This document shows positions 8,949 to 41,348 of a stretch of DNA of 45,710 nucleotides, piece by piece. The notes beneath the pieces are model-generated. The model worked only from the letters and a program-made list of their open reading frames with translations. It ran no database searches and was not told where the DNA came from. The position numbers were made by a program, and so were the translations under genes. How positions within the stretch are numbered: position 1 is the stretch's first letter; each line of letters opens with the position of its first letter. The stretch is from a virus (lineage: Duplodnaviria; Heunggongvirae; Uroviricota; Caudoviricetes), in the IMG/VR virus record IMGVR_UViG_2526164664_000035. One strand, written 5' to 3'.

Positions 8949-8957
8949 GATTACCCC

Positions 8958-9650: not shown

Positions 9651-9652
9651 AG

Positions 9653-22234: not shown

Positions 22235-22946
22235 GTCTTACCCCCAGAAGGGGATCTGTTCAAATTAGGAATTATGGATATGGTCGCTTGAACAAATCCG
22301 GGTTACGGTTGATTTGTAACGGGTTTGTTCGTGACCGCATTCATGAGCAAATCAGGCGTGGATTGCGCCAACAATACATGCCGCTCATATCACGAAGCCC
22401 AGCCATTGATGCTGGGTTTTCTTTTTTAAAGCGTACTAGACAACCGTATCCACAGAGTGTCAGCAATGAGTTGGTTAGGTCTGGTTCTTGGTGGAAGTAC
22501 GCTTTAAAAAATGGGCTGATGGTGTAGCCCAAAATACTGAGTGAATGGTAAGGATGAACAACGGTTTTGCTCTGGGTGGATTTGGCTGTGGTGGCCGGCG
22601 CTGATCTCCGGCTTGTATACAGGCACCTTGTTCTTCCGAAGCTCTCCTGCGCGCATCAGCCTGCGCATTCACCACACCGGAAAGAGCACTCAGTTGTACC
22701 GGCCAGTTGTGCCACTAAGAAATGCTTTCGCAGACCGTTAAGCTCTTTGCCAGTTCTTTAATGCTCTTACCTGTTGTGTGCCCATTATTAATCACACCGG
22801 GCCAGTGCGCCGAATTTGTTTACAAGGAGTCGGAAGACCTTGCTGACTTACAGGCTATTACGCCGCCATCAGAACAACATCATCGTTTGCATTTATCTTT
22901 GTGGTCAGTTTCTAAAAAACCGCAAAGTCGCCAACTCTGACGAAAA

Positions 22947-22972
22947 CTATCGTTGTGCTGCCACAACGATAA
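22947..22972 (-). terminator. Hairpin with short U-run in the late leader (possible second terminator or RNA structure)
   Basis: Perfect 11-bp stem, 3-nt loop (CTATCGTTGTG / CACAACGATAG), followed on the minus strand by TTTT. Confidence 0.35.
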
Positions 22973-23035
22973 GAGCACTCGGTGCATTTAAGCCAAGCCC
23001 CATAAGGGAGAATGCTCTTACCTGTTACACAGATA

Positions 23036-23096
23036 TAAAAAATCCCGAAACCGTTATGCAGGCTCTAACTATTACCTGCGAACTGTTTCGGGATTG
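23036..23096 (-). terminator. tR'-like terminator (3' end of the lambda-type 6S late leader RNA)
   Basis: Minus strand AATCCCGAAAC...GTTTCGGGATTTTTTATATCTG, an 11-bp stem enclosing ~34 nt, matches remembered lambda tR'. Confidence 0.7.
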
Positions 23097-23235
23097 CATT
23101 TTGCAGACCTCTCAGCCTGCGATGGTTGGAGTTCCAGACGATACGTCGAAGTGACCAACTGGGCGGAATCGGTAGTAAGCGCCGCCTCTTTTTATCTCAA
23201 TACCACAACGAGCGAATTAACCCATCGTTGGGTCA

Positions 23236-23264
23236 AATTTACCCAACTTTATTCAATAAGTCAA
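23236..23264 (-). promoter_or_regulatory. Late promoter pR'-like with adjacent qut region
   Basis: Minus strand TTGACTTATTGAATAAAGTTGGGTAAATTTGAC (-35 TTGACT, -10 TAAATT) matches remembered lambda pR', immediately downstream of Q. Confidence 0.6.
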
Positions 23265-23306
23265 TATCATGCCGTTAATATGTTGCCATCCGTGGCAATC
23301 ATGCTG

Positions 23307-23930
23307 CTAACGTGTGACCGCGTTCAAAATGTTGTCTGCGATTGACTCTTCCTTGTGGCATTGCACCACCAGAGCGTCATACAGCGGCTTAACAGTGCGT
23401 GACCAGGTGGGTTGAGTAAGGTTTGGGATTAGCATCGTTACAGCGCGATATGCGGCACTTGCTGGCATCCTTGAATAGCCGACGCCTTTGCATCTTCCGC
23501 ACTCTTTCTCAACAACTCTCCCCCACTGCTCTGTTTTTGCTATATCAACCGCACGGCCTGTACCGTGACAATCTCTGCATCTTGCGCCCGGCGTCGCGGC
23601 ACTACGGCAATAATCCGCATAAGCGAATGTTGCGAGCACTTGCAGTACCTTTGCCTTAGTATTTCCTTCAAGCTTTGCCACGCCACGGTATTTCCCCGAT
23701 ACCTTGTGTGCAAATTGCATCAGATAGTTGATAGCCTTTTGTTTGTCGTTCTGGCTGAGTTCATGCTTACCGCAGAATGCAGCCATTCCGAATCCGGCTT
23801 GTGATTGCGCCATCCCCATAGCAGCCATCACATCAGTACCGGAAAGAGAGTCAGAAGCCGTAGCCCGTGGTGAGTCGCTCATCATCGGGCTTTTTGGCGA
23901 ATGAAATTTAGCTACGCTTTCGAGTCTCAT
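23307..23930 (-). CDS. Q: Late-gene antiterminator Q (lambda-type)
   Basis: 207 aa from the internal Met; [29 protein letters not shown] and the Cys-rich zinc motif CRDCHGTG...CGRCKGVG match remembered lambda Q. Confidence 0.9.
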
Positions 23931-24592
23931 GCGCCTTCTCCCTGTACATGAATCAATGTGAGGTTTCCGCAGAACACTGCGCCGGTATCGATATACATCT
24001 GGTTGGCAAACTTGAGTGGTTTCACTGCTGGCGTATGACCAAAGATGAACATGTCCGCTCCTTTGATTTCTTTCACGATCCCGTCTTGTGAGTTGCTGAT
24101 TCGTTCGCGGTTCCAAATTAACTGCTGATGATCAACTGGCTTTCCAAACTCGTATTCGTCACAAGGATAATCGGCGTGGCAGATGACATATTTTTTATCT
24201 TTGCTCACCAGTTCGATGATTAACGGAAGTTCACCTGCTTTATGGGCAAGAGCTTTAGCCAGAATTTCTTTGTCGTAATCGAGATTAAAGAACCAGCCAC
24301 CGCCATTAAGCAGCCAGTGATTGACGTTTCCACGCTCTGATAAGCCATCAATCATCATTTGCTCATGGTTTCCACGTACAGCTCTGAACCAGGGGAATGT
24401 GATTAATTCCAGACATTCGACGTTCTCTGTACCGCGATCGACCAAATCGCCAACCGAGATAAGCAGGTCTTTTTTGGTGTCGAATCCTATCGTCTCCAGT
24501 TTTTTCATCAGGTTCGTGTAGCATCCGTGCAGATCGCCAACTACCCAAATATTTCGGTATTTGCTGCCATCAATTCTTTCGTAATAGCGCAT
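23927..24592 (-). CDS. ninI: Ser/Thr protein phosphatase (lambda NinI/ORF221-type)
   Basis: GDLHGCY, GDLVDRG and GNHE metallophosphatase motifs; near-identical to remembered lambda phosphatase. Start set to Met MRYYERIDG. Confidence 0.85.
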
Positions 24593-24776
24593 CTCTTTCA
24601 CTCCATCCGCGATGAACCATAAGAACGTCGTTGACGATGGCGTGCATTTTCCCGTCTTTATCATCAACGTATTTTCTTACCGTGCCGCGACTACATTTCA
24701 GTCTGCGTGCTACTTCTGTCTGGTTTCCGTATGCTTCAACGAGCATGTCTGGAATGGTTTTTACTGAGAACGTCAT
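24570..24776 (-). CDS. ninH: NinH
   Basis: 68 aa, [37 protein letters not shown] (HTH-like); matches remembered lambda NinH. Confidence 0.8.
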
Positions 24777-25378
24777 GCGGCCTCACTTCTGCTATTTCGC
24801 AGGTCTTTGAGTTTCTGTTGGTACTCTGCCTTGATCGCCTTGCACTCTTCGATAGTCCAGCGATGGCGGCTATGGTTTGATTCGATTTCGTCTACTGCTT
24901 CCTGCCCTATGCGGTTAATCAGTTCGACGCGATACGGAACGAGATTTCCGCTTTTGTGCTGGTTGCACACCACGCATTGCTTGTGAATATTGCGTTCATC
25001 AAATCGGAGTTGAGGTGCCGCAGCAGTTGTCCGGTAATGTCCGGCATCCCACTGAGCAGACGTGAGCGTTCCGCACGAGATACATGGTAAGTCGCGGTCT
25101 CTTTCTCTGATGAAGGCGTTTACAGCTTGTTGGGCTTGTTTAATCCAGTAACTGCGGGGCTTTAAGGCGAGTTTTCGAATCTTAAGTTTATCTTTCTGTT
25201 TCTGCTCCTCTCGTCGTCGTTTCTTCTCTGCTGCTTTTTCCGCTTTTTCGCGTTCTTTACTTCGTCGTTCGAGTGCTAATTGAGTTCCGTGTTCCGGGCA
25301 GCACCACCACTGATTTGAGAATGCCGGGTGAAACCATTCCTTGCATATTTTGCATTTCCTTCTCGCTGGTTTAGCCAT
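24773..25378 (-). CDS. ninG: NinG (Rap-like recombination-associated protein)
   Basis: 201 aa, Cys-rich ([10 protein letters not shown]...CCPEH; CISCG...CVVCNQHK); matches remembered lambda NinG. Confidence 0.8.
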
Positions 25379-25532
25379 CGTATTCTTCCTCGTACATTGA
25401 GCTATTCGGATCGCTCATCAGTTCTGCACAGCAGTGCTCACACACGTGAACTTCCAGCACATGCAGCTTCTGACCGCAGTTAGCGCACGTTAAAGCTCGC
25501 TCGACGCTTTCTTTCTGGTATTGAAGGGATTG
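25371..25532 (-). pseudogene. ninF: ninF, 5'-truncated at the IS3-family element boundary
   Basis: The last 54 codons (SQSLQYQKESVERALTCANCGQKLHVLEVHVCEHCCAEL...) match lambda NinF; the first codons are replaced by the IS terminus. Confidence 0.6.
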
Positions 25533-25575
25533 TGAGGTGTACTGGCAATAGCGGACACTACCATTTGTTCTTTTT

Positions 25576-26394
25576 TTAAGCAGCCATCTGATGATATTTT
25601 TCCCTGAAGGCTGCCGGGGAGATATTCCCCAGACGAGAGTGACGACGCTGACGATTGTAGAAAATCTCAATGTATTCCCGTATTACTGAGATGGCTTCAT
25701 CCCGGTTATTAAAACGATAGTGGCTCAGGCTCTCATTTTTCAGCGTTCCCCAGAAGCTTTCCATCGGAGCGTTGTCGTAACAGTTACCTTTACGCGACAT
25801 TGATGTTTTCAGACCAAACTGCTCCTGTATGACCCGGTAATCGTATGCGCAGTACTGTGAACCTCGATCAGAGTGGTGGATTAGCCCGGCAGGTGGGCGC
25901 TGGCTCCTGAGCGCCATAAACAGAGCTTTACCTGTCAGCTCTTTTGTCATGCGCTCTCCCATGGCGTAGCCGACAATTTCGCACGTATAAACATCTTTGA
26001 TGCCAGCGAGGTACAACCATCCCTCCTGTGTGGCAACATACGTCAGGTCCGCCACCCAGACCTGATTTGGTGCTGTAGGAGCGAACGTCTGGTTCAGCAG
26101 ATTTGGCGCAACTGGCAGATTGTGGTTCGAGTTCGTAGTCGCTCTGAACTTGCGTTTCTGCTTACAGCGTAGCCTTAGCTCCTTACGAAGACGTGCCAGT
26201 CGGTCACGACCAACGATGATGCCATTCTCTGCCAGCTCCGTCTGGAGCCGCCGGGTTCCATATGTTTCGCGAGTGCGGATATGTGCCACCTTAATCTCCA
26301 GTTTTAGCCGCTCATCACTTTGTTTTCTGTCTGAGGGTTCATGCTGTACCCAGTTGTAATAACCGCTCCTGGATACACCAAATACCTGACACAT
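25576..26394 (-). CDS. IS3-family transposase OrfB (DDE catalytic domain)
   Basis: WVADLTYV...HHSDRGSQY...CYDNAPMESFWGTLK DDE motifs; expected to be expressed as an OrfAB fusion by -1 frameshifting. Confidence 0.85.
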   Translation of the reverse strand: MCQVFGVSRSGYYNWVQHEPSDRKQSDERLKLEIKVAHIRTRETYGTRRLQTELAENGIIVGRDRLARLRKELRLRCKQKRKFRATTNSNHNLPVAPNLLNQTFAPTAPNQVWVADLTYVATQEGWLYLAGIKDVYTCEIVGYAMGERMTKELTGKALFMALRSQRPPAGLIHHSDRGSQYCAYDYRVIQEQFGLKTSMSRKGNCYDNAPMESFWGTLKNESLSHYRFNNRDEAISVIREYIEIFYNRQRRHSRLGNISPAAFREKYHQMAA

Positions 26395-26429
26395 CGCTTC
26401 AATGGGAAATTGTTGTCGCCATTGTTCGA

Positions 26430-26732
26430 TTAACGCGTATTTTTCAGCGACTCCTGTGCAAAATACGCTGTTGCTTTTTTTAATATATCTCGCTCAAGGC
26501 GAGCTTCATTTAACGCCTTACGCAGTTGCAGAATTTCAGATTCCAGTTCAGCCACCGTGCGGGAACCAGGAGTACCGAGCCCTTTTCTGGCGGCGGTAAC
26601 CCATTGTCCTAAAGTGCCTTCAGGAAGAGATAATCGGGAAGCGCCTTCACTGATCGAAAGTTGATTTTCAAGAACCGTTCTGACAGCTTCGGCTTTGAAC
26701 TCTTTAGAGTAACGTTGGGTTTTTCTGCTCAT
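26430..26732 (-). CDS. IS3-family transposase OrfA (HTH/leucine-zipper)
   Basis: MSRKTQRYSKEFKAEAVRTVLENQ...ILKKATAYFAQE is typical of IS3-family OrfA. Confidence 0.85.
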   Translation of the reverse strand: MSRKTQRYSKEFKAEAVRTVLENQLSISEGASRLSLPEGTLGQWVTAARKGLGTPGSRTVAELESEILQLRKALNEARLERDILKKATAYFAQESLKNTR

Positions 26733-26970
26733 TATTAGCTCCTTCTGATGCCATTCTATTTCAGGAAGGAGTGTCCGTTAAACTCAGGCTACCTCAAGAT
26801 TCATAAACCAAAAGAGGAAAAATGATGTGGCCTATATGTGTTAATTGCGGACGGATGTGCCTATCTGGATGGTGCCGAAAGTGCGACAAATGCACGAAGA
26901 AAAGACAATAACAATCCTCGCACTGACGGGGATTTCTTTTATCTGAACTCGCTACGGCGAGTTTTGTTTT

Positions 26971-27282
26971 ATGGAGATGATTATGGCCTGTTCAACATTC
27001 AACCCTTTAACGTTACAGAAATACCAGCCAGACCCTGAAGATTTATGCTCACTGTGTGGCGGAAATCATGGTAAAGCTGCCATGATCGAATGTAAGGACA
27101 AAATCCACATATGCCTTAATTGCGTTGATGTCCTCGTTGATATCAAAAATGAAAGAGAAGATAAAAAGCGTAGCGAGGCTATTCGCGCCTTAGATTCATG
27201 GATGCGAGATGGGTATAGTGCTGCGCAAATTTATGACTTAGCCATTTCAAAAGGCGAAATACCAGGTGTGCGAATCGAATAA
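26971..27282 (+). CDS. Hypothetical Cys-rich small protein (possible zinc ribbon)
   Basis: CSLCGG...CKDKIHICLNC gives two CxxC pairs; + strand between the IS and the putative attR. Confidence 0.4.
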   Translation: MEMIMACSTFNPLTLQKYQPDPEDLCSLCGGNHGKAAMIECKDKIHICLNCVDVLVDIKNEREDKKRSEAIRALDSWMRDGYSAAQIYDLAISKGEIPGVRIE

Positions 27283-27317
27283 GAAGCGCACTCAAGCATC
27301 TTTTGGGGAAATCACAA

Positions 27318-27485
27318 ATGCACTTCCGAGTCACAGGTGAATTGAATGGAGAACCATTCAACAGAGTTATCGAAGCAGAGGACATCAACGACTGCTATGA
27401 CCACTGGATGATATGGGCGCAGATAGCACATGCAGACGTAACCAATATTCGAATTGAAGAACTGAAAGAACACCAAGCCGCCTGA
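27318..27485 (+). CDS. Hypothetical small protein
   Basis: 55 aa from the internal Met MHFRVTGELNG; followed directly by a terminator hairpin. Confidence 0.3.
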   Translation: MHFRVTGELNGEPFNRVIEAEDINDCYDHWMIWAQIAHADVTNIRIEELKEHQAA

Positions 27486-27498
27486 TGGCGGTTTTTTA
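27477..27498 (+). terminator. Rho-independent terminator
   Basis: GCCGCC-TGAT-GGCGG hairpin followed by TTTTTT. Confidence 0.55.
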
Positions 27499-27507
27499 TT
27501 GCCTGAT

Positions 27508-27523
27508 TTGCAGGTTCGATTCC
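27508..27523 (+). other. tRNA T-arm-like 16-mer (TTGCAGGTTCGATTCC), possible att-associated tRNA fragment
   Basis: Contains the GGTTCGATTCC T-loop consensus and matches my memory of the tRNA-Arg(argW) T-arm; not part of a complete tRNA. Confidence 0.3.
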
Positions 27524-27542
27524 CTATTCGGAGATAGCACTC

Positions 27543-27743
27543 ATGCAACACGAACTACAACCTGATTCACTGGTTGATTTGAAATTCATCATGGCTGATA
27601 CTGGCTTTGGTAAAACCTTCATCTACGACCGGATTAAGTCCGGCGACCTGCCTAAAGCCAAAGTTATCCACGGTCGAGCAAGATGGTTATATCGTGACCA
27701 TTGTGAATTCAAAAATAAGCTCTTAAGCCGCGCTAATGGGTAA
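27543..27743 (+). CDS. AlpA/Xis-family DNA-binding protein (putative excisionase or regulator)
   Basis: 66 aa; LVDLKFIMADTGFGKTFIYDRIKSGDLPKAKVIHGRARWLYRD fits the AlpA/phage-excisionase HTH pattern with its conserved Trp. Confidence 0.6.
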   Translation: MQHELQPDSLVDLKFIMADTGFGKTFIYDRIKSGDLPKAKVIHGRARWLYRDHCEFKNKLLSRANG

Positions 27744-27816
27744 AATAGCGGGTAAAATATTTCTCACATCTAAAAAATACCATTCTAATCAATCCCCTGC
27801 CACTCTAAGTAGATGT

Positions 27817-27831
27817 CTGCAGGGGACACCA
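27817..27831 (+). other. att core-like sequence resembling the 3' end of tRNA-Arg (CTGCAGGGGACACCA)
   Basis: 15-nt match to the remembered argW 3' acceptor end including CCA, ~175 bp upstream of the second integrase. The GCAGGGG part also pairs with CCCCTGC at 27794-27800 as a local hairpin. Confidence 0.4.
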
Positions 27832-28006
27832 TGCACACCTCTCCTGAAATCTACCATACCCCACAAAAAGCCTTTATAATCAGCACATACCCTTACTTAT
27901 GTTACTCAAATAGTCGCCTTAATTCTCCTCAGGGGAACGTAAATCAAGTCACATTTGGGGGCCTATTTAGGGGCACATCTTGGTCAATCTATTGCGAGGC
28001 CCCCAG

Positions 28007-29196
28007 ATGCCACTGACAGCTCGACAAGTTGAAACAGCCAAACCCAAAGATAAAATTTATAAGATTGCCGATGGTGGTGGGCTCTACCTTCAGGTCAATC
28101 CTAACGGCTCAAAGTACTGGCGAATGAAGTACCACTATGCGGGGAAGGAAAAGAAACTATCATTTGGCACCTATCCAACTATTACATTGGCTGAAGCTCG
28201 CAAACGTCGGGATGAAGCCAAGAAAATACATGCCGATGGTAAAGATCCCGGTGAAGTCAAGAAAGCTGAAAATCTTGAGAAAAACCTTTCCGAAGGAAGA
28301 ACTTTTGCCGCAATCGCCACCGAGTGGTACAACGCAAAAGTTTCAGGCTGGTCTGCCAGCTACGCTGATTATGTCGACAGAGCATTCAAAAATAATGTGT
28401 TTCCCTACATTGGAAACAGACCCATTAGTGAAATCGAACCTCTTGAACTTCTCGCAGTTCTTCAGCGTATCGAAAGCCGAGGAGCCTGCGAGCTAGCTAA
28501 TAAAGTTCGCCAACGATGTGGTGAAGTGTTTCGGTATGCCATTGTTACAGGTCGGGCACGATACAATCCAGCTTCTGATCTGGTTATAGCAATGAAAAGC
28601 TATAAGCGAACACATTACCCTTTCCTGCTTCCTCCTGAACTACCAGAGTTTTTATACAAACTCGAAAACTAAACCGGCAGTATTGTAACCCGTGAAGCTA
28701 CAAAATTGTTGATGCTCACAGGGCTGAGAACAGTAGAATTACGTATGGGGGAATGGTGTGAGATCGATTTTACCCAAAAGATATGGGAAGTTCCTCCGAC
28801 CCGGATGAAAATGAGGAAGGAGCATATCGTCCCTCTGTCAGATCAGGCAATCCAGTCTCTGCAAATCCTCAAAGAACTGACTGGAAGATACAGATACATC
28901 TTTGCCGGAAGAAATGATGTTAACAGGCCTATCAGCGATGCAAGCGTCAATATGGTTTTGAAGAAGATTGGCTATGACAAAAAGCTACCGGGCATGGATT
29001 TCGTCATACAATGAGTACTGTTCTACACGAGCAAGGATTCAATAGTGCATGGATTGAAATGCAACTTGCACATACGGACAAAAACAGCATTCGTGGTACA
29101 TACAACCATGCTCGTTACCTTGAAGGAAGACGAGAAATGATGCAATGGTACGCTGACTACCTTGATGCTCTTCGAAAAGAGTCACCAGCTATATAA
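28007..29196 (+). pseudogene. P4/IntC-like tyrosine integrase, inactivated by at least two frameshifts
   Basis: Three consecutive ORFs in different frames (28007-28672, 28706-29014, 29011-29196) align end to end with integrase 1: TAKPKDKIYKIADGGGLYLQV... / TGLRTVELRMGEW... / ...YNHARYLEGRREMMQWYADYL. Confidence 0.85.
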
Positions 29197-29863
29197 TCGC
29201 TTGATTTTAAAGGCTGACTTAACGATATCCCCCTGATAGTCATTTATCAGTTATCTAATTATTAAGTCAGCCATAATCCCCTAAGTATCATTCCTTAATC
29301 AGATTCAGCACCTTGTAATACGACCGGTTAATTTAGAAAGAGACGATAGATAAACGCTTATGATGAAATACTAAGAAATTACTTCAGGCTCTATTAACTG
29401 GAGCTGTAATAGACAATAATTTAAATAACGCAATAGTTATATTTATATCTTAATATAAATTTCCACTGTATTTAACGTCCAGGGAGCCATCTTGAAAGGA
29501 TAAAAATTCACATTATCACCATAAAATCACAACGACACCAAAACACATTTCACAACAACACCCTTGCAATAAACCTGTTTTTAACAAAAAATCAAAGACT
29601 GAAAAGAGTTTTGATTCAGAAAACCACATGAGACATGCTTAATATTTTTCAGTTTATCTAAAGGACGCGTTCATCTTTATTACAAAAATATAAGTACACT
29701 GTACTTATTAAACATCCAAAAATCACACCAGTTAATATTTCTTGTATTACTGTAATTTCTGGAAAAATTTCTTCAAAAAAATATAGCATACATATCTTTA
29801 TATGCTATAAAAGATAAGGCAGATTTATAACATACTTGCCTCAATAGAACTATCTAAGGGTTT

Positions 29864-29891
29864 GCCTCCACATATAGTGGAGGCTTTTTTT
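29864..29891 (+). terminator. Rho-independent terminator in the AT-rich ORF-free region
   Basis: GCCTCCAC-ATATAG-GTGGAGGC hairpin followed by TTTTTTT. Confidence 0.5.
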
Positions 29892-30612
29892 ACCCAATAA
29901 CAATATTATTCTGACACTTTATTCCTGTAATCAACAGCAAAAGTATCAAACCAGATGATAATTATTTTCATATTGAGTTTTATCATTCTTTTATATTGTC
30001 AATTCTAATCATAATTTATAATAAATTTTTAATTATTATATTTGCAAAACACAATAATAATAAATTTCTCATTTTTAATTGCAAGTAATATACCTATAAC
30101 ATTTCAAGAATAAACTTTCACAGGTGATTATGACCAATGATATTAACGCCGAACCAAAACACCTACAAAGTAGTAACCAATAATAGGCATGTGACATTAC
30201 TTAACACTGGAATTAAATATCATCACGCAATGTAAATATTTATAAATTAACCAGATTACATTGACCATTTTGTTCAGTTTTATAATTATTCCAATATAAT
30301 GATATTCCAGTGTAAGTAGTTCAGGTTAGTTCATTTGAATTTTATAAGTAGACATGACGAGAAGAAATATGCGTTACTTTTTTATCATTTCTGATCTTAT
30401 TATCTATAAGTCGATCAAAGAAAGATTGATTACTATGAAATTTGATTCATGGAGTGACACATGACAAAGGGGAATATATCTGAAAGAGACTTTGATATCC
30501 TGATCAAGCTATCAGGAATACATAGCGAGAAGGCAATTCTTGCTTTGAAAAAATACTATGTCGATGGGGTCATCAGGAAAATTGATCCTACCCACGTAAT
30601 GTGGACACGGCC

Positions 30613-31456
30613 CTAAGCGAGATTATGGTTTTCAAATTGTTCCGGGCTGAGACCGCCACAGGCACTGTGACGACGCCAGCGATTGTAATCACACTCGATA
30701 TAATTAAACACCGTTGCCCGCATTATTTCCCGGCTGCTAAAGCGTTCCCCGTGGATACATTCCACCTTCAGCGAATGAAAGAAGCTTTCCACACAGGCAT
30801 TGTCATAACAGTAGCCTTTCGCACTCATACTGCCACGCAGGTTGTGTCGCTTCAGCAGCGCCTGATAATCCCCTGAACAGTATTGACCACCACGGTCCGT
30901 ATGAACAATGACGCTTTCCGGGCGTCTTCTCCGCCACAACGCCATTTGTAGTGCATCACAGGCCAGTTGTGCTGTCATTCGCGGTGACATCGACCAGCCA
31001 ATGACGGCGCGTGACCACAGGTCGATGACTACTGCGAGATACAACCAGCCCTCATCGGTACGCAAGTACGTGATGTCACCCGCCCACTTCTGGTTCGGGC
31101 CTCTGGCGCTGAAGTCCTGCTCCAGCAGATTCTCCAATACGGGCAGGCCATGTGCACGGTAGCTGACCGGGCTGAACTTTCGCCCGCAGCCCCTGACGAC
31201 GCAGGCTGGCGGCAATGGTTTTAATATTGAACTCCGGCAGTTCGTCAGCAAGGCGGGGAGCACCGTATCGCTGCTTTGCCTCAAAGAATGCCTTATGGAC
31301 AGCGGCATCGCAGGTGAGCCGAAACTGTTGGCGAAGGCTCATCTGGTGACGACGCCTGAGCCAGACATACCAGCCGCTGCGGGCAACCCGAAGTACACGA
31401 CACATCGCTTTGATGCAGAACTCTGCCCGATGATTTTCGATGAAGACATACTTCAT
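30613..31456 (-). pseudogene. IS3 transposase orfB, split by an internal frameshift
   Basis: The N-terminal part ([13 protein letters not shown]...) and the DDE-containing C-terminal part (...[10 protein letters not shown]...[15 protein letters not shown]) lie in different frames, overlapping at 31076-31308. Confidence 0.75.
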
Positions 31457-31752
31457 TTCAGGCGATTCGCGAAGTATGTCGCGGCCTTTTGGAGGATGGC
31501 CAGTTCCTCAGCCTGCTCCGCCAGTTGTCGTTTAAGGCGGACATTTTCAGCGGCCAGTTCGCTTTCGCGCTCTGACGAACTCATTTGTTGCTGCTGTTTA
31601 CTGCGCCAGGCATAAAGCTGAGATTCATAAAGGCTGAGTTCACGGGCTGCGGCGGCCACACCGATGCGTTCAGCGAGTTTCAGGGCTTCGTTACGAAATT
31701 CAGGCGAATGTTGTTCACGGGGCTTCTTGCTGATTGATACTGGTTTTGTCAT
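31453..31752 (-). CDS. IS3 transposase OrfA
   Basis: [53 protein letters not shown] closely matches remembered IS3 OrfA. Confidence 0.85.
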
Positions 31753-31928
31753 GAGTCACCTCTGGTTGAGAGTTTACTCACTTAGTCCTGTGTCCACTAT
31801 TGGTGGGTAAGATCAGATCAACGAAGAGAAGATCAGCATATATGCACTAGAAACCAAAATATCGAGCCAAGGCAATTGTTAACTTGCGTGGACAGATGCT
31901 CGTTATGTATTAAAATCCCATTGCTTAG

Positions 31929-34289
31929 TCACGAAGATAATGATCGTATGGCTTCCTTAAGGGCTGGTGAGACACGTTGATTAAGTGCTTCATTAGCCCA
32001 GTCGGATTGCACGGGTATTCTACGCAATATCACTGTGTTTAAAGCAGCAAACAAACGATGCAGTAAATGTATAGAACCGGTCGCGATAGCTGTATCCACC
32101 CACTGGTCCGCATAGAGCCATGGGGCTGAAAATAAATCAGCCATCGCCTGAGTAGCAACTTCAATAGACGCTTTTTCTAGGCAAAGAACATCACCCTGAT
32201 CGCCAAAATTATGCTCAAAGTAAGGCAATCCTTCTATATTCGTGCGAATTAGAGGAAATGGGCAGCGCCCAATGCTCAGTAAAATATAGGCGTCTATACG
32301 CTGATCATCGTCACCCACCTCTGCTGACGGCAGTTTCGCTAGTTGCCCGAGTATCATCCAACTGGTTGATTTAGAAATGACCTTTGGGATTTGATCCTCT
32401 AAATTCACCAGAACACTCTTTGCATCATCCCCGTGTTTAGAAATCCACGCTAATCCATCCTCAATCTTTAGATTGACTTGTTGGTTGTCTGGCATGGCTA
32501 AAGTAAACAATCCGTTTTTTATAGGTTCTTTATATGGCTCAATGCTGAGAAGGCCCTGAATAATTCCAAAGCTGAAATATCTCTCTTTAGCTGCCATACG
32601 GCGTATGGCTTGAGCACCGATCATATCTCCAAGATAAGTGGCGTCTAGCCGTTCGCCAAGCCAAGCCCCGGCGTCTTGAGGGTCTTGTTCTGCCCGTAAA
32701 ACCAGTTCATCACAAACAGCATCCGACAGTTCCAGAAGGTAAGCTGCGGGAACTGTCGGCACCACAACATCTTCCCATCCTGAAAGGCGAAAAATACGAA
32801 CTGCCCCCATATGTTTTAACTCATTCACTACACCACGAGCTTCGTCAGAAAGTGCGTCATACCGCACGACAAATCCATTCGCTTTAGCAAACATTAATTC
32901 TACTGAGTGGGAGTTTGTGTCAGCTAGTGCGCAGCGTGCAAGAACCCGATAATAACGAAGAAGATCATACTGACTCTCATAGCTCTTTTGCGCAGCATCT
33001 ATAAGTTCCATACCGGGTGATGGAGGAAGATAGGCGATAAGATCCGTTTTCTGGTATTGATGATTGCGCACAATGTCATCATAAATAGTGCGAAGAACCC
33101 AAGGCGAGCGGTAGTCATCGGCGTATTCTGCTCCCTGTTGAAAAACTATCCGCTGGTCCGAGAGAATCTGTTGCGCCAGCTTAAATTCATCTAGGGACAT
33201 AGGCGATGTTTTAAATACCTTCGACCGGCTACCAATTGCAGACGGAGTTCGTCCGTTTGGATTTTTCAGTAACGCGTTGGCATGATAGGTCGTCAGAACA
33301 ACCACCAGCCTGTTGCCAAAACGTATACCCGCAAGTTCCTCAAGATCAGTAGCCATTTGGGAGCCTGGTTCAACGTCGTCGATAGCAAGCATAAGCGATG
33401 GACCTTCAGTGCAGTTAGACATTCGTCTTAACCAGTTACGTGCATCATTTGAGGTTAAATTCCATTCAAATTCAGCTGCAAAAAGATTGGCCAGAGCCTG
33501 AAATAGTCCTGGTCCGGAACCTCGTAACATCAGGACAGCCAAAAGATCGCTACTTTCCGTTTTTAGCGAAATTTCACGGAGGCAACTGCTTTTTCCGCTT
33601 TGTGCATCACCCTCAATGATAGTGAAAGCTGTACCCATCACAGCAGATTCAATTACAAGAGACGTGATTTTGCGAGGAAAAAGTAGGTTGTTGGCAAATG
33701 GATGTTCTGAATGCCCAGGCTGATCAGTTATATCAATCAGCAGCCGGGCTGTTTCTTCTCGCACAGCTGGCACCCAAGCATTAGTTTCTCGCCCCATCAA
33801 GGCTTCAATAGCCCAGCGCATGTCAGCCGCCGCCAACTTTGCAGAATTGGCGAGCATCTTGTTTACCGCTGCCGAGGCATCCTGTCCACCCGACCACTGT
33901 TGTCCATTACTTGAGTCATAAACGCGCGTATCTTTACCGTTCGTAACTACAACGAGAGGCGGACGTGGTGTTAACTGGTTAGCGTAGCTTTGAGCCTGTT
34001 CATAATCATCATGGGTCAGTGTCAGGTCTTCACGTTTCAGTTCAATAACCGCAAGTGGTCTCTCCCGATGAAAGATCAAAACATCCGCTCGCCCGTATTT
34101 TTTCCAGTGTGCGGCGCTATCTATTTTGTAAGTTCCATGGCCTAGCCGAACGGTAAAATGGCGCTGTTCGATAAGATCTTCGCGAGGAATGTTAGGAAAT
34201 GCTATGTTTAGTGCTGAAGTAAGCCGGCTTTCTAGCTCGGCTTCAGTTCGAACGAGTGGAGAGCCCGTTTTTGATTGCATACTTTTCAT
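31929..34289 (-). CDS. Unclassified nuclease-NTPase fusion protein (N-terminal PD-(D/E)xK-like domain plus P-loop NTPase); candidate defence protein
   Basis: 786 aa. N-terminal ...GRADVLIFHRERPLAVIELKRED (D...E-x-K, HsdR-N/Mrr-like pattern); Walker A GDAQSGKSS; Walker B-like LMLAIDDVE; long C-terminal region without recognisable motifs. GAGGA RBS 9 nt upstream. Confidence 0.55.
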   Translation of the reverse strand: MKSMQSKTGSPLVRTEAELESRLTSALNIAFPNIPREDLIEQRHFTVRLGHGTYKIDSAAHWKKYGRADVLIFHRERPLAVIELKREDLTLTHDDYEQAQSYANQLTPRPPLVVVTNGKDTRVYDSSNGQQWSGGQDASAAVNKMLANSAKLAAADMRWAIEALMGRETNAWVPAVREETARLLIDITDQPGHSEHPFANNLLFPRKITSLVIESAVMGTAFTIIEGDAQSGKSSCLREISLKTESSDLLAVLMLRGSGPGLFQALANLFAAEFEWNLTSNDARNWLRRMSNCTEGPSLMLAIDDVEPGSQMATDLEELAGIRFGNRLVVVLTTYHANALLKNPNGRTPSAIGSRSKVFKTSPMSLDEFKLAQQILSDQRIVFQQGAEYADDYRSPWVLRTIYDDIVRNHQYQKTDLIAYLPPSPGMELIDAAQKSYESQYDLLRYYRVLARCALADTNSHSVELMFAKANGFVVRYDALSDEARGVVNELKHMGAVRIFRLSGWEDVVVPTVPAAYLLELSDAVCDELVLRAEQDPQDAGAWLGERLDATYLGDMIGAQAIRRMAAKERYFSFGIIQGLLSIEPYKEPIKNGLFTLAMPDNQQVNLKIEDGLAWISKHGDDAKSVLVNLEDQIPKVISKSTSWMILGQLAKLPSAEVGDDDQRIDAYILLSIGRCPFPLIRTNIEGLPYFEHNFGDQGDVLCLEKASIEVATQAMADLFSAPWLYADQWVDTAIATGSIHLLHRLFAALNTVILRRIPVQSDWANEALNQRVSPALKEAIRSLSS

Positions 34290-34503
34290 GACAAAGTATC
34301 CTCAGATATTAGTCATTGGCTAAGTTTTTATTTCACTTACTACCTTTCCAGATTAATGCGAAGACGCATAGCATTGGATTAACGGATGTGAAATGGATTA
34401 TTGACAAGCAAAGTAACTTTTTCCGCATAACTATCAATTGATTAGCTGAAGAAAGGGAATATGATTTAGTTCACTCAGGTTTCTCCAGCACGATGTGCAG
34501 ATG

Positions 34504-34784
34504 CTAAAGCCACGATTAATTCTAAAGCAGATTAATATAACCCTGAAACAGGCAGAGCTGGAAACGCCTGTATCGGAAGTATGCCGCATGACCGCCCCCG
34601 ATAACTCACACCGAATGCCAATAGGAATGTCAGCCCCTCGCTCATAGCAGACCTTCGGGCCTGGCAGCTTAGTGCCAAGAACACTCCCCAGTGGCCTATC
34701 GGCAAGTGTAAGCGTACGAATATCGCCTCCGTGCTACACAGTAGACGACTACATTTTCGACGCATGAGCAAATCGTGGCTTTAG
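34504..34784. repeat. 253-bp segment bounded by perfect 14-bp inverted repeats (CTAAAGCCACGATT / AATCGTGGCTTTAG)
   Basis: Inverted repeats at 34504-34517 and 34771-34784, read directly; located in the 643-bp spacer between the membrane-protein gene and the nuclease-NTPase gene. Confidence 0.5.
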
Positions 34785-34932
34785 TTGTCTAAAACCAGTG
34801 CTTCAACACTTTTTTTTCACCAAACAACGCATCGTAGAAGCACTAGTTGGATTCCACAGGCTTACGTAAACAAATAGCGCTAACGGCTAAGCTGGTCCAT
34901 TAGACGCTCAATCATCCTCGCAAGAGGTATAG

Positions 34933-35949
34933 TTACTCGATGCCCAGAACAAATGACATTAACAAATCTAGCTTTATTTTCATGTCTGCAGTTGCCGAAG
35001 CCGCATTAACCTGCGGCAAGGCAAGCCATCTGTTTACGGCATCGGAGTTGAATCTCTGCTGCCTTAGGAACGAAGATACCGACGTTTCCCAGGAAAAGAT
35101 TTCACCCCCACAAAGTTCGACGGGCTGCTGAGAGCAGGCTCGCTGAATAGTCATTCCCAAACCGACGTAGCGGAGAAGCTCACGTCGCACATTCTCATCT
35201 TTTTGCATGACTGGTGCATCCAGTTTCGGTTTCGGTCCAAAGTACACTCCGGTAGTACCTGGTTGTAATGTCGGGTCACTGGAAAAATAAACCGGAACTC
35301 CCATCAATTTAAATGCCGCTGTCAAAATTTCATAACTAATGTCTGATCGACTCCAACGGCCCATGTGGGGTGGTACTTTTGGCAAACCGACCAGATCATC
35401 GCCACGGCTTACAATCGATACCCCCTCAACTGGCACGGATGGTTGCATTCTGAATACAGCGTCAGAATCGATTTCCCAGCCAGCTTCGCTTAACAATCGC
35501 AAAAAATTACCAGCAGCCACGCACGATGATTCACTCCACTCAACACAACCGATGCGCAGCTTGTCCCGCTGACCGAACTGTCCTGTTCGAAATAATTCGA
35601 GGTATCTGTCGCGATTGGAACTATTAACGGCATATGCATCAATCACAGTAGGCGGTACAGGTTTACTTGCAGATTCAGGATTTTGTTGAAGCAAATCTGG
35701 GCTTATGAAAAACACTATAGCGAAGATCGCCACTGCGCCAGATGCTCTTAACCACCCATTAAATTTTACTTCAAGGAAACCAGGCAGAACTGCACCAATA
35801 CATCCGGCAGCCAGAACCAGAACTATTCGGTAAACTATATATTGATAAGGTGTGGGATTGGGGGTTGTGATAGTAGTAATGAGTATGGCAACTATCGCCA
35901 CAACCGCAAAACCATACCTAATGAACTTGTCTGTCCTTACACTGCTCAT
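34933..35949 (-). CDS. Membrane protein of unknown function (three N-terminal TM helices plus ~240-aa soluble domain)
   Basis: 338 aa; hydrophobic segments YGFAVVAIVAILITTITT, IVYRIVLVLAAGCIGAVLPGFL and ASGAVAIFAIVFFISP; co-directional with and upstream of the nuclease-NTPase gene. Confidence 0.5.
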   Translation of the reverse strand: MSSVRTDKFIRYGFAVVAIVAILITTITTPNPTPYQYIVYRIVLVLAAGCIGAVLPGFLEVKFNGWLRASGAVAIFAIVFFISPDLLQQNPESASKPVPPTVIDAYAVNSSNRDRYLELFRTGQFGQRDKLRIGCVEWSESSCVAAGNFLRLLSEAGWEIDSDAVFRMQPSVPVEGVSIVSRGDDLVGLPKVPPHMGRWSRSDISYEILTAAFKLMGVPVYFSSDPTLQPGTTGVYFGPKPKLDAPVMQKDENVRRELLRYVGLGMTIQRACSQQPVELCGGEIFSWETSVSSFLRQQRFNSDAVNRWLALPQVNAASATADMKIKLDLLMSFVLGIE

Positions 35950-36421
35950 TTTAATTTTGACACCTGAATCAAGTCCATAAGTCGAAAATCCCGCATTAAA
36001 CTGCTCCCCAATGATTAATACAGCTTTATACGCGTAATGAGGCTATTGGCGTTGGTGATGAGTGTAACTGTCCATTCCTCGCTCAGAGCAACCTTCTGCT
36101 CCAAGAGTCAGTCTACAGTGTGCAAAAAACAGACGTTGATCACAATATCGAGTTAATCATTCGGCCGTTTATCACTCCCATTGAAAAATTTCTCAGTATC
36201 CAATATACCAATGTTGAGGGCTTCCCTCTTACATCTCAAAAGGATAACTATCATGGGTCTTAAACCTGGTCCAAAACCAATTGCTAAATCGACAGGAAAA
36301 CCAGATCAACGCCGACGAGATAATAAAGATACTCCTGGCAACACTCCGGGACTAAAGCCAAGTAAGTCGTAACCGGCTCATTTAAACCGTCTGGTCTGTT
36401 TCCTCCGGCTCTACAAAAATA

Positions 36422-37099
36422 ATGTCCATCATTTTTAATGGACACTATCGTATGAAACACCGGACCTGGATCACTGAAGCTTTACGTCTTCACTTTGAAG
36501 AACATTTACCCCGGGTTGTGGCCGGGCGTCGCCTGGGTGTACCAAAATCAACAGTTTGTAGTATGTTCGTGCGCTTTCGGAGAGCTGGCCTTTCGTGGCC
36601 TTTGCCCGCAGGCATGTCGGAGCAGGAACTTGATGCCTGCCTTTACGGACAATTTTCCACGGTACCAGTCGTACGTCCTGAAAGCACCGTTATATCCGAA
36701 GCCCCCGTGGTAAAAAAACGTCCCCGGCGGCCCAACTTCCCTTATGAGTTTAAAATCGCCTTAGTGGAGCAGTCACTGCAGCCCGGAGCCTGTGTGGCGC
36801 AGATCGCCCGGGAAAACGGAATCAACGATAACCTGCTCTTCAACTGGCGCCATCAATACCGGAAAGGTGGCCTGCTGCCTTCCGGAAAAAATATGCCGGC
36901 ACTGCTTCCCGTGACGTTAACGCCGGAGCCGGATAATAAAATCCCGGCCCCCGCACAGGAACCAGAGCAGATAAATACACCGTCCGACAGTCTGTGTTGT
37001 GAGCTGGTTCTGCCGGCCGGAACTCTCAGGCTTAAAGGTAAACTGACGCCGGCGTTATTACAGACACTTATCCGCGAAATAAAAGGGAGCAGCCACTGA
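36422..37099 (+). CDS. IS66-family accessory protein TnpA (orf1)
   Basis: First ORF of the IS66-type cassette; HTH-like region. The true start may be the downstream Met (MKHRTW...). Confidence 0.7.
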   Translation: MSIIFNGHYRMKHRTWITEALRLHFEEHLPRVVAGRRLGVPKSTVCSMFVRFRRAGLSWPLPAGMSEQELDACLYGQFSTVPVVRPESTVISEAPVVKKRPRRPNFPYEFKIALVEQSLQPGACVAQIARENGINDNLLFNWRHQYRKGGLLPSGKNMPALLPVTLTPEPDNKIPAPAQEPEQINTPSDSLCCELVLPAGTLRLKGKLTPALLQTLIREIKGSSH

Positions 37100-37446
37100 T
37101 GATATCTCTCCCTGCAGGTTCGCGTATCTGGCTGGTTGCAGGTATCACCGATATGCGAAATGGCTTTAACGGCCTGGCATCAAAAGTTCAGAACGTCCTG
37201 AAGGATGACCCGTTCTCCGGACACCTGTTCATCTTCCGCGGACGCCGGGGTGACCAGATAAAAGTGTTGTGGGCTGACAGTGACGGACTGTGCCTCTTCA
37301 CCAAACGCCTGGAGCGGGGCCGCTTCGTCTGGCCAGTCACCCGTGACGGCAAGGTGCACCTTACTCCGGCTCAGTTATCCATGCTTCTTGAAGGTATCAA
37401 CTGGAAGCACCCGAAACGAACGGAACGCGCTGGAATCCGCATATAA
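37099..37446 (+). CDS. IS66-family TnpB (orf2)
   Basis: 115 aa, MISLPAGSRIWLVAGITDMRNGFNGLASKVQNVLKDDPFSGHLFIFRGRRGDQIKVLWAD, the hallmark IS66 Orf2 sequence. Confidence 0.85.
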   Translation: MISLPAGSRIWLVAGITDMRNGFNGLASKVQNVLKDDPFSGHLFIFRGRRGDQIKVLWADSDGLCLFTKRLERGRFVWPVTRDGKVHLTPAQLSMLLEGINWKHPKRTERAGIRI

Positions 37447-37465
37447 CCCGTTGTAAAGTGAGGAT

Positions 37466-39037
37466 ATGGACACCTCACTTGCTCATGAGAACGCCCGCCT
37501 GCGGGCACTGTTGCAGACGCAACAGGACACCATCCGCCAGATGGCTGAATACAACCGCCTGCTCTCACAGCGGGTGGCGGCTTATGCTTCCGAAATCAAC
37601 CGGCTGAAGGCGCTGGTTGCGAAACTGCAACGTATGCAGTTCGGTAAAAGCTCAGAAAAACTTCGTGCAAAAACCGAACGGCAGATACAGGAAGCACAGG
37701 AGCGAATCAGCGCACTTCAGGAAGAAATGGCGGAAACGCTGGGTGAGCAATATGACCCGGTACTGCCATCCGCCCTGCGCCAGTCTTCAGCCCGTAAACC
37801 GTTACCGGCCTCACTTCCCCGTGAAACCCGGGTTATCCGGCCGGAAGAGGAATGCTGTCCTGCCTGTGGTGGTGAACTCAGTTCTCTGGGATGTGATGTG
37901 TCAGAGCAACTGGAGCTTATCAGCAGCGCCTTTAAGGTTATCGAAACACAACGTCCGAAACAGGCCTGTTGCCGGTGCGACCATATCGTGCAGGCACCAG
38001 TACCTTCAAAACCCATTGCACGCAGTTATGCCGGAGCGGGGCTTCTGGCCCATGTTGTCACCGGGAAATATGCAGACCATCTGCCGTTATACCGCCAGTC
38101 AGAAATATACCGTCGTCAGGGAGTGGAGCTGAGCCGTGCCACACTGGGGCGCTGGACAGGTGCTGTTGCTGAACTGCTGGAGCCGCTGTATGACGTCCTG
38201 CGCCAGTATGTGCTGATGCCCGGTAAAGTCCATGCTGATGATATCCCCGTCCCGGTCCAGGAGCCGGGCAGCGGTAAAACCCGGACAGCCCGGCTGTGGG
38301 TCTACGTCCGTGATGACCGTAACGCCGGTTCACAGATGCCCCCGGCGGTCTGGTTCGCGTACAGTCCGGACCGGAAAGGTATCCATCCACAAAATCACCT
38401 GGCCGGTTACAGCGGTGTGCTTCAGGCCGATGCTTACGGTGGTTACCGGGCGTTATACGAATCCGGCAGAATAACGGAAGCCGCGTGTATGGCTCATGCC
38501 CGGAGAAAAATCCACGATGTGCATGCAAGAGCGCCCACCTACATCACCACGGAAGCCCTGCAGCGTATCGGTGAACTGTATGCCATCGAGGCAGAGGTCC
38601 GGGGCTGTTCAGCAGAACAGCGTCTGGCGGCAAGAAAAGCCAGAGCCGCGCCACTGATGCAGTCACTGTATGACTGGATACAGCAACAGATGAAAACACT
38701 GTCGCGTCACTCAGATACGGCAAAAGCGTTCGCATACCTGCTGAAACAGTGGGATGCACTGAACGTGTACTGCAGTAATGGCTGGGTGGAAATCGACAAC
38801 AACATCGCAGAGAACGCCTTACGGGGAGTGGCCGTAGGCCGGAAAAACTGGATGTTCGCGGGTTCCGACAGCGGTGGTGAACATGCGGCGGTGTTGTACT
38901 CGCTGATCGGCACATGCCGTCTGAACAATGTGGAGCCAGAAAAGTGGCTGCGTTACGTCATTGAACATATCCAGGACTGGCCGGCAAACCGGGTACGCGA
39001 TCTGTTGCCCTGGAAAGTTGATCTGAGCTCTCAGTAA
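37466..39037 (+). CDS. IS66-family transposase TnpC
   Basis: 523 aa with N-terminal leucine zipper ([26 protein letters not shown]), CxxC zinc finger (CPACGG...CCRCDH) and DDE region (LWVYVRDDR...). Confidence 0.9.
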
Positions 39038-39067
39038 ATATCAATACGGTTCTGACGAGTCGCTTAC

Positions 39068-40210
39068 GGTTATCCGGACTGTACGTGAAAAGCATGCCTG
39101 TACTCAGTGCGATGCCATCGTGCAGGCCCCCGCGCCTTCACGGCCCATCGAGCGGGGTATCGCAGGACCGGGGCTGCTGGCCCGCGTGCTGATCTCAAAG
39201 TATGCAGAGCACACCCCGCTGTACCGCCAGTCTGAAATGTACGGCCGCCAGGGCGTGGAGCTGAGTCGTTCACTGCTGTCGGGCTGGGTGGATGCATGCT
39301 GCCGGCTACTGTCACCGCTGGAAGAAGCGCTTCAGGACTATGTGCTGACTGACGGTAAGCTCCATGCTGATGACACGCCTGTCCCGGTGCTGTTGCCAGG
39401 CAATAAGAAAACGAAGACCGGGCGGTTATGGACCTACGTTCGTGACGACCGTAACGCCGGGTCAACGCTGGCGCCGGCGGTGTTGTTCGCTTACAGCCCG
39501 GACAGAAAAGGCATCCATCCGCAGACCCATCTTGCGGGGTTCAGTGGTGTACTGCAGGCGGATGCATACGCCGGGTTCAACGAGCTGTACCGGGATGGCC
39601 GGATAACGGAAGCCGCCTGTTGGGCTCACGCCCGCCGTAAAATCCACGATGTGCACGTTCGCACCCCGTCAGCCCTGACGGAGGAAGCGCTGAAACGGAT
39701 CGGCGAACTGTACGCCATCGAGGCAGAGATAAGGGGAATGACGGCGGAGCAGCGCCTTGCCGAACGTCAGTTGAAAACGAAACCGCTAGCTGAAATCCCT
39801 AGGAAACGCTGGCTGCGTGAAAAGATGAAAACCCTGTCGCGACACTCAGAACTGGCGAAAGCGTTACGCATACGCCCTGAACCAGTGGCCGGCGCTGACG
39901 TACTATGCAGATGATGGCTGGGCTGAGGCGGACAATAACATCGCTGAAAATGCGTTGCGGATGGTCAGTCTGGGCCGCAAAAACTACCTGTTCTTCGGTT
40001 CGGATCATGGAGGAGAGCGGGGAGCGCTGCTGTACAGCCTGATCGGGACGTGCAAACTGAACGGAGTGGAGCCAGAAAGCTACCTCCGCTATGTCCTTGA
40101 CGTCATAGCCGACTGGCCGATAAACCGGGTCGGCGAACTGCTCCCCTGGCGCGTAGCACTGCCGACTGAATAACACATCCCCGTCAATACGGTTCTTGCT
40201 GCACGCTTAC
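39068..40210 (+). mobile_element. 5'-truncated second IS66-family copy (remnant) abutting the first
   Basis: Begins mid-tnpC at a point aligning with ~37934 of copy 1; ends with an IS66-type terminus ...GTCAATACGGTTCTTGCTGCACGCTTAC at 40210. Confidence 0.7.
39120..40173 (+). pseudogene. IS66-family transposase fragment (N-terminally truncated, internal frameshift near 39900)
   Basis: ORFs 39120-39914 and 39955-40173 together align with the C-terminal two-thirds of TnpC ([23 protein letters not shown]...; ...[22 protein letters not shown]). Confidence 0.8.
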
Positions 40211-40946: not shown

Positions 40947-40963
40947 GTAACTCTCTAAATAGG

Positions 40964-41347: not shown

Positions 41348-41348
41348 A

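Follow-up and report, generated by a model that had tools for sequence, protein, structure and literature searches.

Deletions which start from one end of an insertion sequence (IS) are well known in enterohaemorrhagic Escherichia coli (EHEC). The IS-excision enhancer (IEE), a protein found on SpLE1-like elements of O26:H11 strains among others, promotes the excision of IS629, IS1203 and IS600, as well as the deletion of the DNA which flanks them (PMC9397093). The deletions linked to IEE range from a few nt to over 40 kb and the protein has a microhomology-mediated end-joining activity (PMC9943667); the scars left by excision are typically microhomologies of 2–4 bp (bioRxiv 10.1101/2023.06.07.543989). 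Other prophages of O26 strains have also been found with IS-mediated deletions and with IS600 insertions upstream of q (PMC10042803). Here we describe a prophage in the IMG/VR virus record IMGVR_UViG_2526164664_000035, a stretch of 45,710 nucleotides which we call the window and to which all coordinates refer, unless a locus label is given. The prophage is assigned to the Sf6/HK620 group and has no immunity or replication region; a copy of IS600 stands in its place. The reading which we prefer, with a probability of about 0.6, is that the early region was recently lost through a deletion anchored at one end of this IS600. Our literature search found no paper on this O26 prophage at argW or on its deletions.

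The locus resembles the IEE-promoted deletions of IS3-family elements (IS629/IS600) in EHEC by several features. An intact IS terminus is joined to remote DNA without a target-site duplication, the deletions found from the same IS end go from about 1 kb to tens of kb, a sister strain has lost the IS across a 4-bp microhomology and the host lineage is known for iee. The IEE systems are known from experiment; for the locus described here the comparison is one of sequence, and recombination between two IS copies gives the same product.

As for the prophage itself, Sf6, HK620 and the prophage of E. coli O26:H11 strain 11368 have the same IntS/TorI module, the same 16-bp att core at the tRNA gene argW and the same gene order as the window. 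Most packaging, head, lysis and nin proteins are 97–100% identical to theirs, and Q is 99% identical to the Q of HK620. In comparison with all three, the window lacks a 13.9-kb segment which goes from ninE to the ea genes and includes the repressor, cro, cII, the N-like gene, the origin and the replication genes. Its tailspike, gp16 and gp20 also differ from those of Sf6 and HK620, as is usual in mosaic phages. Sf6 carries an IS of its own: IS911, also of the IS3 family, lies in ninG (L017 32876-34124), in the dispensable nin region and one gene away from the IS600 site described here. Sf6 is a viable phage and has IS911 as a simple insertion, whereas here the IS would have gone on to delete the adjoining early region. 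The two cases show that the nin region tolerates IS insertion and is a recurrent landing place.

KplE1 (CPS-53) of E. coli K-12 is also a defective remnant at argW with an IntS/TorI module; we use the names IntS and TorI after the annotation of HK620 and RefSeq. KplE1 can still excise and has lost most of its virion genes. In contrast, the element in the window keeps a full late region and has lost the early one, and the normal drivers of torI (pL and cII) are deleted. Gene transfer agents (GTAs) and domesticated phages of the PBSX type are alike in having a set of virion, packaging and lysis genes with neither replication nor immunity. However, such elements are found conserved in different species and under host control, while the deletion described here is strain-specific, very recent and one of many outcomes. 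The rearrangement adds one more case to a process which is well known, and the IS is a standard IS600; we find no sign of a new system.

Extent of the deletion and genes lost

The window derives from the chromosome of the E. coli O26:H11 lineage of the sequence type 21 (ST21) type (Shiga toxin-producing/enteropathogenic E. coli, STEC/EPEC). Positions 4000-26796 are 100% identical to strain FORC_028 and positions 26797-45710 are 99.96% identical; many further O26 genomes also match the window. As judged from its genes and its ends, the prophage occupies positions 1-27832 and belongs to the P22/Sf6-like genus Lederbergvirus, integrated at the tRNA gene argW.

Strain 11368 carries the same prophage uninterrupted (L002) and was used as reference. 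The original prediction had suggested that the loss be sized on complete relatives; this one gives 13,936 bp. The left flank of the window reaches L002 6064 and the prophage sequence resumes on the right at L002 20001, with the intervening segment replaced by an IS of 1,264 bp. On the nin and replication side, the lost segment contains the start of ninF, a hypothetical gene, ninE, ninB, a DUF7301 gene, a DnaB-like helicase and an O-like replication initiator. It continues on the control side with cII, a cro-type gene, a cI-type XRE repressor, the pL/pR control region and the N-like position, and from the pL side onwards with sieB, kil, erf, abc2 and the ea22/DUF551/DUF4752 genes.

None of the 28 early-region proteins of the intact 11368 prophage is encoded in the 45.7-kb window, as found with tblastn; the same search finds only residues 16–69 of ninF, two small open reading frames (ORFs) and TorI. 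From the lambdoid early region (cI, cro, cII, N, O, P and nin) only the truncated ninF, ninG, ninH, ninI and Q are left. The absence of the whole immunity and replication region, with no cI, cro, O, P or N between the IS and the right end, had been predicted and is fully borne out by this search. The further statement that the early region had been removed is correct for the repressor and replication genes, but part of the early-left operon is still there. It consists of the last 29 nt of the DUF4752 gene (26797-26825, + strand), which mark the distal edge of the deletion at L002 20001 in the alignment to the intact prophage, two small ORFs of 99 and 55 amino acids (26983-27485, + strand), and torI/xis. 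The two small ORFs survived the deletion; WP_001368678.1 and WP_000545713.1 in the intact prophage match them with 100% identity, and Pfam gives no hit for either. From its gene content, the prophage is thus to be regarded as a defective derivative of the Sf6/HK620 group and not as a complete member of it.

The IS600 copy and the truncated ninF

The IS occupies positions 25533-26796 on the minus strand and has the structure of IS600, an element of the IS3 family: a length of 1,264 bp, terminal repeats of the TG...CA type and two genes, orfA and orfB, both intact. The termini are TGAGGT...ACCTCA, with imperfect inverted repeats; the end sequences are TGAGGTGTACTGG... and ...CAGGCTACCTCA. orfA (26430-26732, minus strand) has an HTH_Tnp_1 domain, orfB (25576-26394, minus strand) has HTH_21 and the DDE domain rve. 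RefSeq annotates identical DNA as "IS3-like element IS600 family transposase" and notes a "programmed frameshift" in the identical transposase gene, which reads towards ninF and Q. IS600 is a multi-copy element, with up to 43 places per genome.

The ninF gene (25371-25532, minus strand) lacks the first 15 nt and with them its start codon, and is now read as part of a fusion ORF which starts inside the IS; Pfam recognizes NinF in this fusion ORF. The missing sequence is atgcttagcccatcc (MLSPS). In the intact 11368 prophage it is present and continues with caa tcc ctt (MLSPSQSL...), which are the first ninF codons found in the window. The gene is cut exactly at the IS terminus, so that the element lies precisely at the truncated ninF, at position 25533, as originally predicted.

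The absence of a matching target-site duplication was also correctly predicted: IS600 is flanked by TTG on one side and AGA on the other. This absence is meaningful because related strains have five other copies of IS600 in this region, which served as a positive control, and all of them are flanked by perfect 3-bp duplications (GTA, ATC, GTG, TAT and GAC). We take the missing duplication as the mark of a rearrangement after insertion; it is no argument against membership in IS600.

A side observation concerns the DUF4752 gene. It has a length of only 279 bp, and three independent IS600 events have affected it in three lineages: EH2252 (L003 16908), FWSEC0001 (L006 32372) and the window (26797). 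In the first two strains they are simple insertions with duplications, in opposite orientations; the third event is the endpoint of the deletion in the window. The gene appears to be a local hot spot for IS600.

Deletions in related genomes

We surveyed the junctions in 5,426 complete E. coli genomes. The junction between ninF and IS600 is present in 18 of them, while 370 have the uninterrupted site. The end of the IS which adjoins ninF is the right inverted repeat (IRR), the same in the 18 related genomes, and the left end (IRL), upstream of the transposase gene, is joined to a variable distal site. The anchor IS has exactly 1,264 bp wherever it is complete. We have read 11 of these 18 genomes directly beyond the other IS end; the remaining seven were assigned by the identical geometry of their matches. 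At least five distal endpoints are found besides that of the window, which makes six junctions in all, and none of them has a target-site duplication.

The smallest deletion (type A) removes 1,140 bp, with the distal flank at L002 7205, and keeps immunity and replication; six genomes were read directly and two more were inferred. In type B the distal flank lies at L002 16133, inside erf, with a deletion of 10,068 bp; it is found in FORC_028 and 6817 and was inferred in two more strains. Type C ends at window position 31713, inside an IS3 element of the neighbouring island. It has lost about 18.9 kb, including torI and attR, and is present in 2003-3014 (L008) and, by inference, in two more strains. 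Type D, with the distal flank at L002 20001 and 13,936 bp deleted, is found in the window only.

Two more types are characterized by their distal flanks. In strain 10205 (type B') only 450 bp of the anchor IS are left, and the terminus of a second IS600 follows directly (L013 3100-4813). This second copy is complete, which shows a deletion anchored at an IS end that ran into another IS600 copy. Type E, found in 96_1414B and inferred in one more strain, ends beyond the island in a truncated sugar-transporter gene. In 96_1414B (L012 4364-5317) the transporter is a truncated oligosaccharide transporter of the major facilitator superfamily (MFS) and adjoins a sugar kinase gene, so that the deletion leaves the prophage; our guess is that this flank is the csc sucrose locus.

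The distal junction of the window, CTCAGGCTACCTCA joined to AGATTCATAAACC, is found in none of the 5,426 genomes. A simple insertion of IS600 in ninF with a TTG duplication, which would read GAAGGGATTG, IS600, TTGGGATGGGCTAAGC, is not present in any sampled genome either. Strains UTAK-23, 12689, PV0838 and others appeared to have IS600 adjoining window position 26797, but separate BLAST pieces had been joined in these cases and the IS600 is elsewhere; we rejected them. Two junction matches with "100%" coverage were also rejected, as they were two-piece joins with 160–210 bp of extra DNA.

Strain 06_3235 is particularly informative. It has the two breakpoints of the window, within 1–5 bp, and no IS between them; the two sides are joined as gaaggGATTcataaacc (L004 4025-4040). 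IS600 plus 6 bp have been lost across a 4-bp microhomology (GATT), a junction which is unique among the genomes surveyed.

When all these strains are considered together, a natural series of outcomes from one IS600 copy becomes apparent: a small deletion, larger ones, a run-out of the prophage, truncation of the IS and its clean loss. The series agrees with the experimental results for IS629 with IEE.

Origin of the deletion and state of the element

The deletion may be described in three steps. IS600 would have inserted in ninF; its IRL end would then have entered an intramolecular event driven by the transposase, probably assisted by IEE, which O26:H11 strains carry; the intact IS terminus would have been joined to a remote site and the DNA in between discarded. 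The IS would be complete and yet without a target-site duplication because such a one-ended event joins an intact terminus to a remote site. A fixed IS end, a variable distal end and an intact terminus are the classic signature of flanking deletions anchored at an IS end. The deletions promoted by IEE have the same features: the exact IS terminus is joined to remote DNA, the lengths are variable and an IS-less product at a microhomology is found, here in 06_3235. The original prediction that an IS-mediated deletion had removed the early region is strongly supported by the intact relative in 11368, the shared junction between ninF and IS600 and the IS-less state of 06_3235.

Several points weigh against a one-ended event. 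Homologous recombination with a second IS600 in the same orientation, placed at the distal point, gives an identical product, and the sequence cannot separate the two routes. The DUF4752 gene has been hit independently by IS600 in two other strains, so that an intermediate with two copies is plausible. Finally, the presence of iee is taken from the literature on O26:H11, and any copy of it in the source genome would lie outside the window.

These points lead to the alternative that a second IS600 copy landed in the DUF4752 gene, 29 nt before its 3' end and oriented like the first, and that RecA-dependent recombination with the copy in ninF deleted the interval. One hybrid IS600 would then remain, flanked by half of each original duplication (TTG and AGA), a product with the same sequence as the window. 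We consider this route possible, although clearly less probable than a one-ended event. Prophages with several IS600 copies in the same orientation do exist: EH2252 has three of them and FORC_028 has two, and the insertions in the DUF4752 gene of EH2252 and FWSEC0001 are independent. However, an IS600 at the exact distal site is found in no complete genome; the intermediate with two copies and an AGA duplication would read ATGACCATTCAGA, followed by the IRR terminus TGAGGTGTACTGG. Moreover, this route would require a separate intermediate, so far unsampled, for each of the five other endpoints, while a one-ended event needs none, and the strains with multiple copies have kept them without recombining.

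Whatever the route, the remnant should be unable to repress, to replicate or to run the normal cascade from early to late genes, because cI, cro, pR, pL, the N-like function, cII and the origin are gone. The loss of pR deprives Q and the late operon of what normally drives them. The only promoters visible upstream of Q are that of the IS600 transposase and a candidate hybrid promoter. The first was found in a consensus scan as a weak promoter-like site (26781-26753), on the strand of Q and upstream of it. The second is on the minus strand at 25548-25520: TTGCCA in the IS end (25548-25543), a spacer of 17 nt and TTCAAT in ninF (25525-25520), directed towards ninG, ninH, ninI and Q. It was read by eye, is weak and was not called by the consensus scan. 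We infer that the element is silent or nearly so, because its normal promoters are missing. On the other side, the transposase has the same orientation as Q, and the candidate hybrid promoter could give some transcription of Q. The integrase gene intS retains its own promoter region by attL and both att cores are intact; excision may be inefficient because torI has lost pL and cII.

The DNA retained over 4000-26796 is 100% identical to that of FORC_028, whose late genes share their protein accessions with the intact prophage of 11368 over the part common to both loci. The deletion thus appears to be very recent: there has been no time for mutations, so that the late genes are perfect and their intactness carries no signal of selection. 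Two outcomes had been proposed originally, a decaying remnant or a domesticated element which produces particles. We favour a very recent decaying remnant, an ordinary step of prophage decay in a pathogen lineage with many IS elements, in view of the junction found in none of the genomes surveyed, its recency and the varied sister deletions; we find no support for domestication. Undirected decay is preferred because the sister deletions differ widely and some of them destroy xis/attR or enter the host chromosome. A conserved GTA-like element would have the same defective architecture across a diverged clade, and none of the complete E. coli genomes shares that of the window.

The remnant might still be used as a non-replicating module for particles and lysis, switched on in trans by the Q of other lambdoid prophages or by read-through from IS600, and packaging host DNA in place from its pac site, in a way similar to lateral transduction or to GTAs. 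In such a case the similar Q of an induced prophage would antiterminate at the intact pR'/qut, and the P22-type heads and terminase would package the chromosome from a pac site in the small-terminase gene. We find this improbable, both for the continued use of the remnant and for its activation in trans. The packaging, virion and lysis genes are indeed intact, as well as pR'/qut, intS, torI and both att cores. The transposase of IS600 is co-oriented with the segment from ninF to Q, and the Q-pR' segment matches three places per O26 genome, which points to similar Q genes elsewhere in the chromosome; these Q-like copies are known by their number per genome. Against continued use, the exact deletion is in none of the 5,426 genomes and its IS-less derivative in only one, and the sister deletions have very different extents: some destroy xis, attR or neighbouring DNA and no consistent functional unit is kept. 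The intactness of the genes also loses its weight as a signal of selection, given the 100% identity to FORC_028 over 4000-26796 and the accessions shared with 11368. If the module were active, it would cause lateral transduction of the chromosome on the argW side, including the neighbouring island; excision would be delayed or absent and transduction favoured, since the element has no replication of its own and the drivers of xis are lost.

The least probable alternative is an assembly artefact, in which two IS600 copies were collapsed and the early region dropped, as the multiple copies of IS600 per genome and in this prophage of sister strains might suggest: the independently finished genome of 06_3235 shares both breakpoints and has the IS removed, a state most simply derived from the structure of the window, which must therefore have existed in a real cell, and a contig which crosses the IS with unique sequence on either side is not the usual result of a short-read collapse.

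For the annotation and typing of O26 STEC the case has a practical side: prophage-finding tools would score this prophage as mostly "intact", due to its complete late region, yet it has neither lysogeny control nor replication.

Prophage ends and retained genes

The first base of the window is the ATG of intS (1-1158, + strand), the prophage integrase. It is intact, has 385 amino acids with the Pfam domains Arm-DNA-bind_3, Phage_int_M and Phage_integrase, and is 99% identical to IntS of Sf6 over its full length. In the annotation of FORC_028 it adjoins a tRNA-Arg gene (argW), found together with attL 161 bp farther left and outside the window; a tRNA scan of the window found none, and an Rfam scan of the window gave no match. 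At the other end we find torI (27543-27743, + strand), annotated as such, the excisionase or recombination directionality factor. Sf6 and HK620 encode TorI homologues with 100% identity to its protein. The attR core CTGCAGGGGACACCAT (27817-27832) has 16 bp and corresponds to argW positions 61–75 plus one base, at the 3' end of the tRNA; HK620 and Sf6 are annotated with this 16-mer as their attP core. The original placement of the right end at 27831 agrees with this core. In the phages HK620 and Sf6 attP lies between int and xis, which puts the two genes at opposite ends of the prophage, as they are here. The IntS/TorI module, the att core inside argW and this arrangement are those of Lederbergvirus.

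Another piece of argW is found shortly before torI, at 27508-27523: 16 nt of the T-arm, TTGCAGGTTCGATTCC (tRNA positions 46–61). The same copy is kept in HK620 (L016 1677-1692) and Sf6 (L017 18408-18423), where it overlaps the annotated pI/cII-binding region. It lies about 290 bp from the att core (tRNA positions 61–75); the two pieces correspond to the contiguous 3' third of argW, split by torI.

The retained genes are mostly on the minus strand. The P22-type module for virion, DNA injection and packaging is complete (5698-19212), with gp16, gp20, gp7, gp14, gp26, gp10, gp4, coat, scaffold, portal, TerL and TerS, compared with Sf6 and HK620 by tblastn. Together with the tailspike it gives the packaging, head and injection set of Lederbergvirus in its conserved order. 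It is followed by the lysis cassette (21017-22234), with holin, endolysin and Rz/Rz1. The late antiterminator Q (23307-23930) has 207 amino acids, is intact and is recognized by Pfam as Antiterm. The genes ninI (a Ser/Thr phosphatase), ninH and ninG (23927-25378) are also intact, by annotation and protein comparison.

The tblastn comparison finds IntS, TorI, NinH, NinI, Q, holin, endolysin, Rz/Rz1, TerS, TerL, portal, scaffold, coat and the homologues of gp4, gp10, gp26, gp14 and gp7 at full length. Their identities with the counterparts in Sf6 or HK620 are in the 97–100% range, with the exception of TerS (88%) and Rz1 (93%). The original statement that the integrase, late, lysis and packaging genes, Q, ninI, ninH and ninG are intact is borne out. 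The homologues of gp20, gp16 and tailspike are uninterrupted ORFs with only a partial match to Sf6 and HK620.

The left part of the prophage contains three more genes. An acyltransferase (1403-2545, minus strand; Pfam Acyl_transf_3) occupies the position of oac in Sf6 and is likely to be a lysogenic conversion gene which modifies the O-antigen. The tailspike gene (2616-4739, minus strand) is a "phage tailspike protein" in RefSeq and the N-terminal head-binding part of its product matches the tailspikes of HK620 and Sf6. A repressor of the Mnt/Arc type (4828-5127, + strand; Pfam Arc and Repressor_Mnt) is a remnant of the immI region and not the primary immunity repressor. It adjoins the tailspike gene; an obvious antirepressor gene is not found next to it.

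Late regulatory region

Positions 22235-23306, between the lysis cassette and Q, form the late regulatory region of the minus strand, which comprises pR', qut and the late terminators. HK620 has an equivalent gap of 1.02 kb between Q and S, in which pR', qut and tQ are annotated, and promoter-like and terminator-like sites are also present in the window. The DNA is 93–94% identical to HK620 over 816 of the 1,072 bases. The pR' site, TTGACT-17-TAAATT (23264-23236), is a promoter-like site 43 nt downstream of Q, where pR' of HK620 lies.

This stretch of about 1.07 kb between holin and Q has no ORF. We considered whether it could be the site of lost cargo, such as stx or tRNAs, and rejected this possibility: the tRNA scan and Rfam gave no match in 22235-23306, and it has the appearance of an ordinary pR'/qut/terminator region, as in HK620. 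It is not to be taken as a lesion, and no gene is expected there.

Neighbouring island

Directly to the right of attR there is a gene for a P4-type tyrosine integrase (27980-29196). A single in-frame stop and a single frameshift mark it as a pseudogene, and it heads a second integrated element, in tandem at a site derived from argW. We rejected it as the integrase of the prophage due to the stop codon, the frameshift and its position outside attR.

The rest of the island (29200-45710) has a mixed content. On the genes of the island PADLOC gave only weak hits, among them that of a DUF4365 protein to an Aga-type restriction endonuclease; several further ORFs have no family match. A protein of 786 amino acids has the N-terminal domain of HsdR only. 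An AT-rich stretch without ORFs (GC 0.32 at 29–30 kb), a PapB/FocB-like regulator and a frameshifted IS3-family element are also present, together with an IS66-family element (ISCro1) and a partial ISEc22.

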